Made by a program: the position numbers and the translations under genes
Source of the DNA: Podarcis vaucheri
Lineage: Eukaryota
Direction: 5' to 3' (one strand)
Length of the DNA stretch: 64,000 bases
Assembly: GCA_965113315.1 (NCBI GenBank)
Contig: OZ220382.1
In this document: one piece after another, positions 11,604 to 61,914 of the stretch
Numbering within the stretch: position 1 is the stretch's first letter
How the letters are laid out: every line of letters begins with the position of its first letter
The notes under the pieces: model-generated
What the model was told of the DNA's origin: nothing
Seen by the model: only the letters and a program-made list of their open reading frames with translations
Databases searched by the model: none

Positions 11604-11790
11604 GGGCCATAGCTCAAGATACAGCATCTGCTTTGCATGCAGAAAATTCAAGGTTCAATCCCTAGCATCTTCAGAGAGGGCTGGGAAAGGCTCCCTAAAA
11701 CCATGAGAGCATCTGCCAGTCAGTGTAGACAGTACTGAGTTAGAGGGACCAATGGTCAACTGGGTATAAGCGAGCTTCCTACATTCCTAT
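11604..11790 (+). mobile_element. tRNA(Ala)-like SINE (Squam2-like); further copies near 15595-15791, 23227-23424, 28415-28572, 45186-45363 (+) and 3318-3455, 62700-62830 (-)
   Basis: Shared consensus tagctcagtggcagagcatctgctttgcatgcagaaggtcccaggttcaatccc...ctgccagtcagtgtagacaatactgagctagatggaccaatgg...gcagcttcctatgttcct. Confidence 0.75.
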
Positions 11791-26884: not shown

Positions 26885-26936
26885 AATGCTTGAAGATGAT
26901 CTGAAACTCAGCAGTGATGAAGACGATAATGAGCAG
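26885..26936 (+). CDS. AFF2: Internal coding exon (52 nt, phase 2 to 0) of an AF4/FMR2-family gene, probably AFF2; encodes (x)MLEDDLKLSSDEDDNEQ
   Basis: Long polypyrimidine tract (tttttctttctttgtcttttttccctcctg) + aaag acceptor; CAG|GTAACA donor. MLEDDLKLSSDE is the hallmark AFF2/AFF3 motif. Paralog chosen from the next exon. Confidence 0.85.
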
Positions 26937-34623: not shown

Positions 34624-35357
34624 TGTCTTCCCGTGTAAGAGTTGGGGTGTCTGGGCGACGTTTCGACGAGGTCTCACTCGTCATCTTCAGGCTGGTGCTT
34701 TCGGCTTCTTGTTACTGGAACAGAGCAGGGTCTTAGTGTTTGAGTTCCTATAAATACTGTTGAGGGGGTGTGGTGTATAGCCTCCAACGTTCTGGGCAGA
34801 GAGGAAGTTCCTAGATTAGTGTGCCTTTTCTTCTTTTGTTCCTTAATTACTTGAGGGATATCTTGAGTGATTTCATGAGTGATATTCTGAATACCACTTA
34901 GGTGGGTCATTAAGTGTGGATTAGTTGCTAAAGCTTTCGTGTCTTGACCTCTTGAGCTTGTGAAGAGTTTTTCGAAGATGGCTGTGCTGCATTTAGTTGT
35001 GCTCTGGCTTGGCTTCGTGTATAGGGGCGAGCTGTGGTTTTGTGCCCTGTGCCAGCCAGATCTGTGTAGGGATTGCAGGGGGGTGCAGCATCCGGAGGTG
35101 CCACTATAGTTTGGCTACTGGATGGAGTTTGTAATTTATCTGTGGAGAGGGTCTGGGTTTGGGTCTGGTGTGGTTGATTGGTGACGGCGTTCTGTGTGCC
35201 TCTGGTTCTGGTGTCGGTTTTTGTGGGGAGGGCTAATTTCCAGATGTCTGGCAGGCGGGACGTGTCGTCACGCTTGTTCATGTTGTGAGGGTGTTTCTCT
35301 ATCTCGATGGCTTCCATGATTATTCTCTTGTGGTGATGTTCCATGTTAAAGAGCAAT
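34624..35357 (-). repeat. 734-bp inverted repeat arm matching 36958-37691
   Basis: Paired positions sum to 72315 at both ends checked; ORF-track peptides from both arms are identical; no mismatch noticed by eye. Confidence 0.95.
34655..34694 (-). ncRNA. Minimal hammerhead ribozyme, inverted copy
   Basis: Reverse complement of 37621-37660. Confidence 0.78.
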
Positions 35358-37387
35358 CGACCAAAATCGACCCAGATGAAGCCAATAAAATCAGACTTGA
35401 AGTCACCAACATCCTCTGCTCCAGCAAACCACCCAGAAGCAATTTACACAAAGAAGAACAGAAAGCACTCACCAACCTGAGGAAAGACAACAACATAATC
35501 ATTCTCCCAGCAGACAAAGGCAATGCCACTGTTGTGATGAACACATCGGACTACCAAGCAAAACTATCAAATCTACTCCAAGACCCTACCTACCAACCTA
35601 TAAAAACAGATCCCACCACCTATCTGGAAAAAACCACCAAATCCAAAATAAAAGCCTCTCCTATCAGTGAAGAAATCCAGCTAAGAATCATCCCCAGAGA
35701 AAAATCATCCAGATGCCCCAAACTCTACGGTCTCCCCAAGATACACAAAGAAGGAACACCACTCAGACCAATAGTCAGCTCCATAGGCTCACCTCTACAA
35801 AATCTCGCTAAATTTCTCGCTAAGCAACTTCAGCCCTATGCAGAATCCATCGCTTCACACGTTACTAACTCCTTCCAGTTCATAGAAACAATAAAGAAGC
35901 AAAACCTACATCCCGATGACCTACTTGTAAGCTTCGATGTTGTATCTCTCTTCACTCAAGTGCCCATTAATGAAGCCTTGACAGCCATTCAAAACAAATA
36001 CAATCCCCCCGAATACATCCTGGACCTGACCAACCACTGCCTAACCAACACGTACTTCATCCATAATGGACAAAGATACAAACAGATAGAAGGAGCACCT
36101 ATGGGATCGCCCCTCTCACCGGTCATCGCAAATTTGTACATGGAACACTTTGAAACCAATGCTTTAGATAAGTCAGAACACAAACCCAAACTTTGGCTCA
36201 GATATGTTGACGACACCTTTGTAATTTGGCCACACGGGAAAGAAAAACTAGATAGCTTCCTCACACATCTCAACAGCCTACACCCCAAAATACAATTCAC
36301 TATGGAAATAGAAGACAACAACCAACTCCCCTTCCTTGACGTCCTAATCTACAAAAAACCTGATGGCTCCCTAGGACACACTATCTACCGGAAAAAAACA
36401 CACACCAACCGCTACTTACATGCACAATCACACCACCACCCTGCACAAATAAACTCCGTAGCCAAGACTCTCATCTCCAGAACCAAACGCCTGGCTGACA
36501 AAGACCACTTGACAACTGAGTTACAAAATCTCTCTAATGTGTTAATCGCCAATGGATACCAGCAAAACAGGGTTACCAAGCTAATCCAAAAAGAAACACC
36601 CCCCAAAAACCAAGACACAGAAGAAAACAATGGCATGGCCCTCCTTCCTTATATCAAGGGCACTACAGATAAAATTAGCAAAATCCTCCATAAACACAAT
36701 ATCAAAACAGCCTTCTGCACCAACCAAAAAATAGCCAATATCCTCAGAAACCCCAAAGACAAAATCCAGTTGGAAAACCAAGGGGTCTATGAAATACCCT
36801 GCAAAGTCTGCCCAGCCACGTACATTGGACAAACAAACAGACGAATAAATGCACGTATCGCAGAACACAAGAATGCCGTCAAAAAAGAAGAAAAAACTTC
36901 CTCTCTTTTCCAACACATGAAAGAAACAGGACACGAAATTAATTTTGCAGATTCCAAATTGCTCTTTAACATGGAACATCACCACAAGAGAATAATCATG
37001 GAAGCCATCGAGATAGAGAAACACCCTCACAACATGAACAAGCGTGACGACACGTCCCGCCTGCCAGACATCTGGAAATTAGCCCTCCCCACAAAAACCG
37101 ACACCAGAACCAGAGGCACACAGAACGCCGTCACCAATCAACCACACCAGACCCAAACCCAGACCCTCTCCACAGATAAATTACAAACTCCATCCAGTAG
37201 CCAAACTATAGTGGCACCTCCGGATGCTGCACCCCCCTGCAATCCCTACACAGATCTGGCTGGCACAGGGCACAAAACCACAGCTCGCCCCTATACACGA
37301 AGCCAAGCCAGAGCACAACTAAATGCAGCACAGCCATCTTCGAAAAACTCTTCACAAGCTCAAGAGGTCAAGACACGAAAGCTTTAG
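35358..37387 (+). CDS. PLE polyprotein, 5'-truncated but uninterrupted: reverse transcriptase + GIY-YIG endonuclease
   Basis: PADKGNATVV, LYGLPKIHK..PLRPIVS, LVSFDVVSLFT, GAPMGSPLSP, WLRYVDD (YVDD 36203-36214), LPFLDV; endonuclease GVYEIPCKVCPATYIGQT (36782-36829) with later FQHMKETGH completing the PLE CCHH motif. The first 24 aa of the ORF-track call (35285) come from the inverted segment. Confidence 0.96.
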
Positions 37388-37620
37388 CAACTAATCCACA
37401 CTTAATGACCCACCTAAGTGGTATTCAGAATATCACTCATGAAATCACTCAAGATATCCCTCAAGTAATTAAGGAACAAAAGAAGAAAAGGCACACTAAT
37501 CTAGGAACTTCCTCTCTGCCCAGAACGTTGGAGGCTATACACCACACCCCCTCAACAGTATTTATAGGAACTCAAACACTAAGACCCTGCTCTGTTCCAG
37601 TAACAAGAAGCCGAAAGCAC

Positions 37621-37660
37621 CAGCCTGAAGATGACGAGTGAGACCTCGTCGAAACGTCGC
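37621..37660 (+). ncRNA. Minimal type I hammerhead ribozyme in the PLE pseudo-LTR (copy A); predicted cleavage after C37658
   Basis: CTGAAGA-T-GACGAG-tgagac-CTCGTC-GAAAC-GTC: CUGANGA box, 6-bp stem II, GAAA box, palindromic ACGT in place of stem III, GUC triplet. Obvious stem I only 2 bp. Confidence 0.8.
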
Positions 37661-37832
37661 CCAGACACCCCAACTCTTACACGGGAAGACACCCGAAGAC
37701 ACCAAAACCTGCATTCCTGTACCCGTGAAAATCTACGAAAGCATATATGCTTTCGTAGATTTTCACGGGTACAGGAATGCAGGTTTTGGTGTCTTCGGGT
37801 GTCTTCCCGTGTAAGAGTCGGGGTGTCTGTGC
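37659..37832. repeat. 174-bp spacerless palindrome centred on GCATA|TATGC (37745/37746)
   Basis: Perfect over 37673-37818; two mismatched pairs outside that (37672/37819 and 37661/37830). Confidence 0.95.
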
Positions 37833-38310
37833 CACACCAGACCCAAACCCAGACCCTCTCCACAGACATATTACAGACTCCATCCAGTAGCCAAACTATA
37901 GTGGCACCTCCGGATGCTGCACCCCCCTGCAATCCCTACACAGATCTGGCTGGCACAAGGCACAAAACCATAGCTCGCCCCTATACACGAAGCCAAGCCA
38001 GAGCACAACTAAATGCAGCACAGCCATCTTCTCAGAAAAACTCTTCACAAGCTCAAGAGGTCAAGACACGAAAGCTTTAGCAACTAATCTACACTTAATG
38101 ACCCACCCAGTGATATTCTGAATATCACTCATGAAATCACCCAAGATATCCCTCAAGTAATTAAGGAACAAAAGAAGAAAAGGCACACTAATCTAGGAAC
38201 TTCCTCTTTGCCCAGAACGTTGGAGGCTATACACCACACCCCTCAACAGTATTTATAGGAACTCAAACACCAGACTCTGCTCTGTTCCAGTAACAAGAAG
38301 CCGAAAGCAC

Positions 38311-38350
38311 CAGCCTGAAGATGACGAGTGAGACCTCGTCGAAACGTCGC
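38311..38350 (+). ncRNA. Minimal hammerhead ribozyme (copy B); predicted cleavage after C38348
   Basis: Core identical to 37625-37658, 690 nt downstream. Confidence 0.8.
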
Positions 38351-38399
38351 ACAGACACCCCGACTCTTACACGGGAAGACACCCGAAGACACCAAAACC

Positions 38400-41730: not shown

Positions 41731-41776
<46 letters not shown>

Positions 41777-58150: not shown

Positions 58151-59265
58151 TACCAGAAAATATACTGGAGCAGAGAATGGCAACCCTTAGGAAGAGTGCT
58201 AGTGGACACATTTAAATAGTGTCAGTCACAAAATAGCTGCTCTGGAGGAGGAGCATGGCAGAACATAAAATAGTAGCCAAATCTTGAAGGAGCAGAAAAA
58301 GGCAGGATCAAGAAAGGTGCAGATGTGCCCACCATCACCAATCAAGTTACTCCATCAGTGGAGGAAAGGGTACATACACCAGTCACTGCCATGCTTGCTC
58401 ATAGTGAGAAACTCTTTATACATCTCTGTTAAGAAGTGACGGGAGGGAACAGGTCCAGTCCCACCACCCAGTAAAATGTTGGCATGTTTAAGGGTGTGTG
58501 GTCAAGTACAGGAGAAGCTCAGCCAAAGCAAACAGAAAGTGAGAGGAAGTGCAACCACTTTCCCTTGCAATATGGACTATTGAGGGAATATTACCTGTGA
58601 CATTTTGTGGACCTGGGAGGGAATGCCAATGGCTACAGTAGCATTCATAGAAGCCACGTTGGCAACGCCTAGCTTTGAATGTTGGAGCTGGGCCCATGAG
58701 GGCTGCATGCAAATCCCAACTCGCCATGACACTCTCTGGGGCACTTTGTGCTACCCACACACACTCCTCCTTTCCTGCTTCTCAGGGTTGTTGTGAGGGT
58801 AGAATAAGTGTTGCCCTTCTGCCCCAAAACCCTGACTCATTGTGGGAAGGGTAGATTGAGAAACGTGGGGAATGCTTCTCATAATGCTTGGTTGTGGGCA
58901 GTCCAGGGAATGGGCTGGGTTTGGGTGCAGGAGTTATGTGGCCCCAGGATCTGGGCTAAGGAGAATCTAGCAGGCAAGGGAGATAATGTGGGTCATGAGT
59001 CCCACAGGGCAGGCACATGCTGGTGGAAGGGGTGGTGGTGGATGAGGAACAGCAGAGCAGAATCTGGCAGATGGAATCCCTCCCTGCTCCAGGTGGGCTT
59101 TGACGGTGAGGCAGGAGTTCCAGCTGCTCTTTTCCCTCTGGTGAAGGAGATAGTGTTGCCAGAATCAGGATGTTGATACACAGCCTAGAGTGCCTGGACA
59201 GGATTCAGAGGGCAAGAAGGGAAGAGAAGAGAAGAGACACAGCAACTTAGACATAGCACACACCC

Positions 59266-59716
59266 CAGTGGTGTAGCGTGGGGGGTGCCAGGGGTGCCGG
59301 CCGCACCGGACGCAACATCTGGGGGGCGCGCTCGCTGCCTCCGGAGTCGCCGAAGAGCCTCGGGCGCAGGCTGTAGCGGAGCCGCATGTCTCGCGGAACT
59401 GACGAGCTGTGCGCGCGTCCGGGCTGAAGGCGCCCGGCAGGCAGCGGCTCTCAGTGCTTGCCGCGGAGGACGCGCCAGGCAGCCCCTCCTCACAGCCCCG
59501 CCTCCGCCAGTGCTGCTGCAGCTGCTGGGCCATTGCATTTTCCTCACCTCTCTGCCCCCCTCCTCCTCCGGGCAAGCGGCATCGTTTGGGCGGCAGCGCC
59601 AGCGGCAACTCGCAGGTTAGGGGTTAGGGGGGCGCAAATTACTTGCCTTGCCCCGGGTTAGGGGGCACAAATTACTTGCGTTGCCCCGGGTGCTGACAAC
59701 TCACGCTACGCCGCTG
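59266..59716. mobile_element. GC/CpG-rich hAT non-autonomous element, 451 bp
   Basis: 8-bp TSD ACACACCC (59258-59265, 59717-59724); 15-bp TIR CAGTGGTGTAGCGTG / CACGCTACGCCGCTG with two mismatches. Confidence 0.9.
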
Positions 59717-61914
59717 ACACACCCTCAAGCAAGACATAGCTGCAGAAATTGCACTCCTCACAGGTTAACGCACCTCACCTAGGTTTAAAAGCTTGACAAT
59801 CGGGCAAGACAAGCATTGCAAAACTCTGCAGCTTCCATACAACATTAACCACCTTGCCTGTGACTCTTCAACCTTGGTCCTGGCTTTTAGACTGGGCTAT
59901 TTTCTGCTCCTTGTGGCTTTAAAGAAGTTCTGGAACTTGAATATCTCAGTGCTTATGAAGTTGTATCGTTGTTCTGCTTTAACAAGGATCTCTGCCTCAC
60001 AAGTAAGAGCCCCTGTCATCATATTTTTGGGCAGGAGCAGGACACCCTGTTACAATTGACACAGCTGTCAATGGCACCTGTTGCTCTCGTAAAGTCCTAA
60101 CCTGGAGGCTTTTGTAACAGTTCCAAGTCAGAAGAAACCAATGGGATACATGGGCAAAGGGGAGTTACCCTGGAACCTGGGAGAACATCACAACCTTGGG
60201 ACGTTAGGAACTTCTCAATCTGTTGCCTGAGTAGCCCACCCCAAGAGGCAAGCAGAAAGAAACAGATTCGGACACACACACTCAGTTCAAGTGTCAACAA
60301 CTCTTGTCAATAATGTTAGATAATGATTAAAGGCCCAATGAAGAAGAACAAATAAAGACAGTATTACAGTTTAGGAGCAGAGGAATTTGTAAATTCCTCC
60401 ATTGTTGTGTTGTTCTCCTTCTTCTCTTCTCTTTCACTTTCTGTCTTTCCCTATTGGGCATCAAAGTCTTTGTAGAGTCATGTAATTCACACTTTCCTTA
60501 TTCAGGTATTGGCTCATCCATCAGGTCCTGCCAGCTGGTGAGTCTTTTTAATTATAGGAGTTGGCTGCCTGGACAGCACTGTGCATTGACTAAGGGACCT
60601 ACATTCAGGTACATACACAGATTACCCAGACCATGCCAGGAGGAAAAGTAAGCATGCTGCAAATAGAGTGCCTTATGTCCCTGAAGCCAGATAGAAAGCA
60701 GACCTGGAGCTTGTGTCTGTGCCTTTGCTGACCATGGAATGGAAGGGCTAATGATGAGGTCTAAAAGGGCTGATTCAGGCAGATGAGGCTGAAGATGGCA
60801 GAAAATCAGAGCTATTTTTTCAAGCAAGACAGATCTCTGATAATCCTTACCCTCTCAGAGTCAGCTATAATAAAAATGTCAGAAGGCTAGGAGAGCCACT
60901 TTCAACTATGCTTTTTTTCCCTACAAGGAGGGCTGAAAAGGGATTTTTAATTTTCCTGGAAAACTCAAAAAGGATAACAAATAAATCATCCCACATGTAA
61001 ATCATCAAGGATAACAACAAAATAAAAATATAATAATAACTTTCTCTATCTCATTATCTGTCGCCTTGAATTCTAAGAGTGCAATTCATTGGTGCAATTT
61101 ATTGATTTGTTCATGAATTGGAAATAAGTAGTTGTTTTATTTGAGATGAAGCTCATTTTCTACAAAGTATAGAAGCAGTTTACCCCAATCTAAATTCTGG
61201 AAGGTGAAATGTAATGAATTGTATCCAGTACTAGTCTTCCTCAGAGTAGACCCAATGAAAATAATGAACATGGCCAACTATTAACTTAAATGGGTACCAC
61301 TCCTTAAGTACAGCTCAAGTGGATACAATTTGCAATGCATATAAGCCAGAGGAAAACACACCTACCTTCTTAAACAGACACACACACCTGTCTCTTTAGA
61401 TACACAGATAACTTGGATGTTCTCAAAAATGCTTTGGGGCCCTGTAATAAGCTTGCTGTGCTTTGTACTGCAGAGCAGTCACAGCTCAGTTCCCAGGGAA
61501 TGTCAATGAGATGATTATATATATATCAAGCTCCCTGTGTCAGTCAAAGGCAGCTGAATCTCACACAAAATTAGTGTGGACCATACTCCCTTTGATTCAG
61601 TTTCCAGTAACCAGTGCCATGATGTGTAGCAGCTCCTCCACAGTAAGAGTCAGATTTGCCTTCCAAGTTAATAAAAAACGAAAAGGAAGGGAATGATCCT
61701 GTTCATCTGGTATGTCCAAGCAGGAAATATACACCTTCGGGCCACAGAGTCATGCATCCTACCTATGCCCCCAAGTTCCTTGCATGTGTCAGCCTCACCT
61801 TCTCTTTCCCATGCTGATGTTGGGATGGAGAAATATGTCAACTTTAGTTTCTCTCCATTTCTCAGCTTTCCAGTCTTAAAGCCCAGTTCATCATGTTTCT
61901 GTATGGATTTCGGC

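Follow-up and report, generated by a model that had tools for sequence, protein, structure and literature searches.

Hammerhead motifs in an AFF2-like intron

Two copies of a small hammerhead ribozyme motif lie 690 nt apart in a 64,000-nt stretch of Podarcis vaucheri DNA (hereafter the window; assembly GCA_965113315.1, contig OZ220382.1). A preliminary description, made from the letters alone, proposed that the two form an active dimer which cuts the intron of a host pre-mRNA. We asked whether the pair is such a device or a by-product of the transposon that carries it. Taken as a whole, the evidence set out below indicates that these are very probably the standard hammerheads of a Penelope-like element (PLE), that their spacing was likely produced by two insertions, and that they are predicted not to cut host RNA.

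The host gene lies on the + strand. A 52-nt AFF2-like exon bounded by AG and GT (26885..26936, +), recognised by its match to AFF-family exons, is found upstream of the insertion, and the contig carries AFF-family exons on the + strand to either side of the window, which bears out the proposed sense orientation of the hammerhead pair in an AFF2-like intron. Some 285 kb before the first match to an AFF-family exon, upstream and on the same strand, lies an FMR1/FXR-family gene; with the synteny of FMR1 and AFF2, the host gene is presumably AFF2. Elsewhere in the window, the AFF2-like intron contains a G+C-rich segment (59001-60000; 0.58) that is possibly a CpG island. A weak partial Rfam tRNA match (11610-11665; 30 bits) is probably the head of a tRNA-derived SINE, and an (AT)n tract such as the PLE targets (41731-41774) is free of insertion.

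Both motifs are on the + strand, the first at 37623..37660 (core 37625-37658, predicted cut after 37658; from sequence anatomy and folding) and the second, recognised by sequence match, at 38313..38350 (core 38315-38348, predicted cut after 38348). Their 34-nt cores are identical and 690 nt apart, at the positions originally given. The preliminary description did not include a third copy of the same core (34657-34690), which is on the - strand and runs antisense to the host pre-mRNA. In copy 1, the core consists of CUGAAGA (37625-31), a 6-bp stem II (37633-38 with 37645-50), GAAA, ACGU and C17 at 37658. As had been noted, stem III is the palindrome ACGU (37654-37657), and an extra U precedes stem II at 37632. 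Stem I, already named as a weak point, is limited in copy 1 to 2 bp (37623-24 with 37659-60), with a predicted pair probability of at most 0.003. Stem II of this copy, at 0.98-1.0, is the sole stem predicted to form unaided.

Searches with Rfam at gathering thresholds returned zero hammerhead matches in the window; the models do not cover the minimal form. The features of the minimal hammerhead ribozymes (min-HHRs) of metazoan PLEs are nevertheless present in both cores: a type I core without loop 3, the conserved CUGANGA, GAAA and UH, a long stem II closed by G10.1-C11.1, an additional base separating positions 9 and 10.1, and a palindromic stem III at 15.2-16.2. Also shared are thousands of copies, near-neighbours on the opposite strand, and a location in the PLE pseudo-LTR (pLTR), as seen in the family locus L037, which is built as pLTR-ORF-pLTR. 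Stem I is usually 4-5 bp in this class, longer than here, and 2 bp falls within the published range only through Penelope of Drosophila virilis; this element likewise has near-identical copies, but carries a 2-nt stem III insertion that is absent here. Judged by sequence, the cores are the published minimal hammerhead of PLE pLTRs.

Neither duplex search nor constrained folding yielded an extended stem I; in all variants listed, mismatches occupy the places where it could lengthen, and positions 37661/37662 vary without compensating pairing. Stem II is the same in about 97-98 of the first 100 relaxed-pattern matches listed, in a family too young for covariation, and no core variant was found among those listed in four other sequencing runs.

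The cores had been described as unchanged while the surrounding copies differ at roughly 20 sites. The count stands (21 of 571 alignment columns, 3.7%), as does the identity of the cores; its meaning as special conservation does not, because chance suffices to account for 34 nt without a change. At the divergence of the copies, zero differences across 34 columns have a probability of 0.28, and 33% of the 538 34-column windows that compare copy 1 with copy 2 are likewise free of any difference. Core identity was therefore rejected as a sign of selection, all the more as a non-ribozyme 34-mer nearby is even commoner genome-wide.

The Penelope-like element

The motif at the locus is a known one, carried by a PLE that is new but belongs to a known family. 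The upstream insertion, A, includes a 5'-truncated PLE ORF (35358..37387, +), open to its stop codon, in which Pfam and the translation place a reverse transcriptase (RT) followed by GIY-YIG with CCHH. RVT_1 scored 55.8-59.1 bits against a Pfam cut-off of 29.6; the GIY-YIG match, at 19.7-20.1 bits, is below its cut-off of 22.6, with GVY..YIG and CCHH visible in the translation. Read by eye in the translation, the RT-EN linker is without an extra Zn-finger, unlike in Neptune and Nematis. [quoted passage not shown] Full-length family members are located at L037:870-4249 and L036:2261-5294, the former with an open 906-aa ORF. The start codon is inside the ribozyme, the ATG at 37631-37633 being A9, the extra U and G10.1, and the predicted cut is 28 nt from the A of this ATG.

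The closest named relatives of the PLE protein are those of Podarcis muralis (96%) and Vipera latastei (82%). With the Anolis carolinensis protein P0023 (836 aa) it shares 45% identity over 773 aa. The N-terminus of P0023 matches the PAc RNA letters in the accessible portion of supplement 1 of PMC11167929, and by this sequence match P0023 is very likely PAc (Poseidon_Ac). Domain layout and pairwise identity would place the locus PLE in the Penelope/Poseidon clade.

For PAc, the available text of PMC11167929 describes an ORF with RT and C-terminal GIY-YIG that starts inside the hammerhead, at stem II, a cut 26 nt past the start codon, and a reverse transcription start 111-118 nt into the ORF. 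The lizard PLE analysed here resembles it in ORF layout and in the ORF start at stem II; its long tail reaches 113-115 nt into the ORF, and the two have in common an AT-rich target and zero read ends at the cut site. It differs, as far as hammerheads can be compared by their described layout, in the distance of the cut from the ATG (28 against 26 nt), and further in its length (906 against 836 aa), its 2-bp stem I, its nearly invariable (TA)n target and its 11,140 exact cores.

The family looks recently active, 16 of the 40 copies scored being 100% identical over 186 nt. Near-identical family members were also observed in sequence data of several organisms; together with the 82% match in Vipera, they may reflect recent spread among squamates.

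Arrangement and origin of the 690-nt spacing

The locus resolves into two putative insertions, A and B, each with arms in opposite orientation. Insertion A begins with an inverted arm (34624..35357, -) that comprises the ORF 3' end and the pLTR and runs into N at its outer end. Over 734 nt and with 0 mismatches, this arm is 100% complementary to 36958-37691, and hence includes the copy 1 core. After the ORF, insertion A closes with the 3' pLTR and a long tail (37388..37745, +; from sequence), which ends at a TA junction 115 nt after the start-codon A. Insertion B, delimited by alignment, starts with a short inverted arm of 87 bp with a long tail (37746..37832, -), a fold-back between both cores that is likewise new relative to the preliminary description. 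Its forward arm (37832..38399, +) contains the ORF 3' end from the 37142-equivalent onwards and the pLTR, and its outer end also runs into N.

Both arms of B carry variants at 37661 and 37672 that are absent from A. The two arms of A differ at 0/734 sites, against the 3.7% that separate A from B. Arm pairs at other loci show the same two levels: within an insertion, 109/14,356 sites differ (0.8%, 40 pairs), and in other same-locus pairs 955/28,143 (3.4%, 130 pairs). A and B, whose outer ends are under N, are thus likely two separate insertions at one TA site; (TA)n targets mask target-site duplications. The 30-mer junction that fixes the 690-nt spacing has 1 genomic match at <=1 mismatch. The pair here comes from two truncated arms, unlike the pLTRs flanking one ORF that carry PLE min-HHRs, as in L037, where the two cores are 2,961 nt apart.

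The available parts of two accounts of EN+ PLE insertions (PMC8557442, PMC3846280) describe 5'-truncated copies, an inverted copy adjoining the 5' end, a 30-40-bp tail at one end only (31 nt here) and a microsatellite bias. The locus shows no structural difference from these descriptions, in which the (TA)n bias is stated for Naiads.

The genome contains 11,140 exact cores (5,582 and 5,558 by strand), with 0 for a reversed control, and 12,124 exact copies of the neighbouring non-ribozyme tail 34-mer. Since the number of intact cores reaches 92% of that of the tail 34-mer, reverse transcription would mostly pass an uncut or religated site. The 3' ends of arms were examined at 46 other loci (29 taken as best matches, and 17 among the cores that come first on one contig). 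Among 135 ends, 52 fall at 37714, 78 at 37743/37745 and 5 elsewhere, with tails ending 84 nt (short) or 113-115 nt (long) after the start-codon A. (TA)4 directly follows 130 of the 135 ends, and 39 of 44 back-to-back arm pairs combine one long with one short tail. The commonest arm start is 37589 (13/203 arms, one of them with an extra G), possibly a transcription start or a microhomology hot spot; its interpretation as a capped start is weakened, as most junctions there fit palindromic microhomology. A putative TATA-like box is present in the sequence at 37560..37567 (+).

Same-strand neighbours within 1 kb were counted 13 times among the first 100 cores listed, at spacings of 183-944 nt; scaled to 11,140 cores, an extrapolation, this would give about 1,400 such close pairs in the genome. 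Same-strand pairs being common at varied spacings, the 690-nt distance is arbitrary. We propose that each insertion would arise from mostly uncut RNA on which target-primed reverse transcription begins at two internal sites, and that any sufficiently long arm would carry the hammerhead as a passenger. A and B would be two such events.

A different origin would make the 690-nt unit a nascent non-LTR retrozyme, i.e., a pLTR-derived circular-RNA element, tandem and non-autonomous. PLE pLTRs are proposed as a source of retrozymes in the available text of bioRxiv 10.64898/2026.07.22.740005, and the unit is mostly non-coding and flanked by two same-strand cores. As in the animal non-LTR retrozymes described in the accessible sections of PMC7229834 and of this preprint, for which a PLE origin is proposed, type I hammerheads are found on the same strand a few hundred nt apart. 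A circle joined at the cut sites would regenerate the core seamlessly. However, the arrangement is not head-to-tail, an inverted arm lies inside the unit, and the junction has a single genomic copy. The animal retrozymes described consist of repeats of 150-450 nt that carry canonical type I motifs, whereas the pair here has the minimal motif and is known from DNA sequence; many-copy head-to-tail short monomers with a type I hammerhead are not seen at the locus. We regard a retrozyme origin as extremely improbable. At another family locus (L006:1706-2708), four near-identical short two-arm units stand in tandem with (TA)n between them and cores 252-262 nt apart, an arrangement closer to a retrozyme-like array than the pair in the window.

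Predicted folding and cleavage

Double-hammerhead folds were compared by nearest-neighbour energies, which ignore proteins and the tertiary contacts of the catalytic core. Forcing the fold costs +14.6 kcal/mol in 37560-38399 and +14.7 kcal/mol in a transcript from the element's own promoter, which is without the 734-nt arm; with the 734-nt antisense arm included (34624-38399), the cost is +86.9 kcal/mol. The comparison was extended to 23 other close same-strand core pairs. For the 14 pairs without an antisense core between them, the penalty was 13.3-29.8 kcal/mol in 12 and 64.0 and 77.4 kcal/mol in two, and for the nine pairs with an antisense core between them, it was 78.9-258.9 kcal/mol. The 87-bp fold-back was considered as a block to the dimer and rejected, as the penalty of 14.6-14.7 kcal/mol resembles that of other tandems. 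Only the 734-nt arm is predicted to block the double hammerhead. In the host pre-mRNA, this arm is transcribed earlier and is predicted to pair with copy 1 over its whole length; for copy 2, the stem I strand is predicted to pair with the short arm of insertion B. The double-stranded RNA so formed would more likely be edited by ADAR than cut.

These predictions bear directly on the original proposal that, on the AFF2 pre-mRNA, the sense cores act together as a double hammerhead, make two cuts in the intron and release a 690-nt RNA that circularises. The architecture is of the published dimer type, both cores are intact and in the sense direction, and the dimer fold is topologically possible. 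According to the available text of PMC4209133, min-HHRs did not cleave as single units, whereas Schistosoma dimers and trimers were cleaved at a low level. However, the perfect 734-nt antisense arm upstream raises the cost of the fold to the highest of the three values above; stem I remains at 2 bp in the dimer, and stem III has 4 bp (two A-U and two C-G), with a predicted pair probability of at most 1e-5. Published relatives cut poorly: as far as the accessible text of each source goes, the PAc hammerhead cut in vitro only with its own protein (PMC11167929), and of nine Xenopus dimer elements 1/9 cut and 8/9 did not (bioRxiv 10.64898/2026.07.22.740005). Moreover, the junction is unique, among the many similar close pairs expected in the genome. 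The proposal is therefore not upheld, and we judge it very improbable that the pair cuts the intron and releases such a circle. Weak in vitro cutting of the isolated 37560-38399 transcript may still be possible, its predicted penalty being as low as those of the best other tandems.

The ribozyme would more likely serve the element's own cycle, assisted by the PLE protein. For PAc, insertion did not require hammerhead cutting, as reported in the available text of PMC11167929.

Arms that start at the cut site

The short arm of insertion B starts at the 37659-equivalent (window 37832), the first base past the cut site, with 1-nt microhomology. This is what would be expected if the ribozyme cut a minority of the element's own RNAs, probably aided by protein, and cut-site arms were run-off copies of them, a reading compatible with that of standard PLE hammerheads placed by two insertions. 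It agrees with the in vitro cutting of the PAc hammerhead upon addition of protein, noted above.

Arms truncated within 37654-37671 were sampled as the first 100 of 396 genomic matches. Two with an intact core were dropped, the remaining 98 arms represented 92 events after merging of mirror pairs, and seven events at the censored edge position were excluded. The arms start at 37659 in 11/85 events (P = 0.011 under a flat null, uncorrected for 17 positions), and this is the top position among events with microhomology <=2 nt (10/67, P = 0.006). However, equal peaks are located away from the cut site, at 37663 (12) and 37669 (11), and with microhomology <=1 nt, 37659 is tied with other peaks (7, 7, 6). 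The GC at 37659-60 is itself palindromic microhomology. Furthermore, zero read ends were found at the site in RNA runs of a related species (see below), and the accessible part of PMC11167929 reports zero reads ending at the PAc cut site in Anolis RNA-seq. The genome-wide excess of arms whose 5' end coincides with the cut site is weak and represents a lead, and we consider cutting of the element's own RNA followed by run-off a possible, though rather unlikely, source of these arms.

RNA reads and A-to-G edited copies

The RNA data comprise four raw runs of a related species, about 95% alike; 6-12% of each run was searched, with 237-422 reads placed. These reads pool all copies rather than being specific to the locus, and fragment libraries hide ends; within the four runs, coverage does not dip at the cut site, and no accumulation of ends is listed there. 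Among the changes listed, A>G and T>C predominate. A T>C change at 37646, in stem II, is strand-skewed in one run (15/38 against 0/66), as expected of editing, although an allelic difference may also explain it.

Similar changes are recorded in the genome. Hyper-mutated one-directional alignments occurred three times among 236 over 70 loci, all in L036. In one L036 arm, A-to-G changes affect 60/115 A, distributed by 5' neighbour as A 34/42, T 14/16, C 8/30 and G 4/27, which is the neighbour preference of ADAR. When doubly edited cores were sought by motif, four matches at three loci were obtained, all with the core destroyed. The A-to-G hyper-edited PLE copies are located at L036:5334-8220, at L145:1414-2174 with L146:861-1586, and at L144:1480-1621.

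Edits recur between mirrored arms. In L036, 61 edits are common to both arms, of 62 and 65, and in L145/L146 all are (13/13, 13/13 and 24/24; 50/50 together). Edits common to mirrored arms would mean that both arms came from one RNA molecule, or one arm from a copy of the other. We infer that fold-back transcripts of compound loci may form double-stranded RNA, be edited through the ribozyme core and reinsert. A literature search covering listings and the starts of abstracts, with subscription journals outside its scope, retrieved no paper on ADAR-edited genomic PLE copies.

Implications for the locus and the family

Together, our results describe the locus, as found, as an ordinary PLE leftover. 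Had the intron-cutting proposal been true, a young transposon would have supplied a vertebrate genome with roughly a thousand pairs able to cut themselves, and some of these would sever pre-mRNAs.

A broader idea, which we offer as speculative and doubtful, is that this family records the history of its own RNA in the genome: cut-site arms would be run-off products of reverse transcription on RNA cut in the cell, and ADAR-barcoded arms would share one RNA. If true, the cut-site arms would give a first in vivo indication that a minimal PLE hammerhead cleaves. The more than 11,000 near-identical recent arms allow computational tests of in vivo min-HHR cutting, through arm 5' ends, and of the formation of two-arm insertions, through shared edits.
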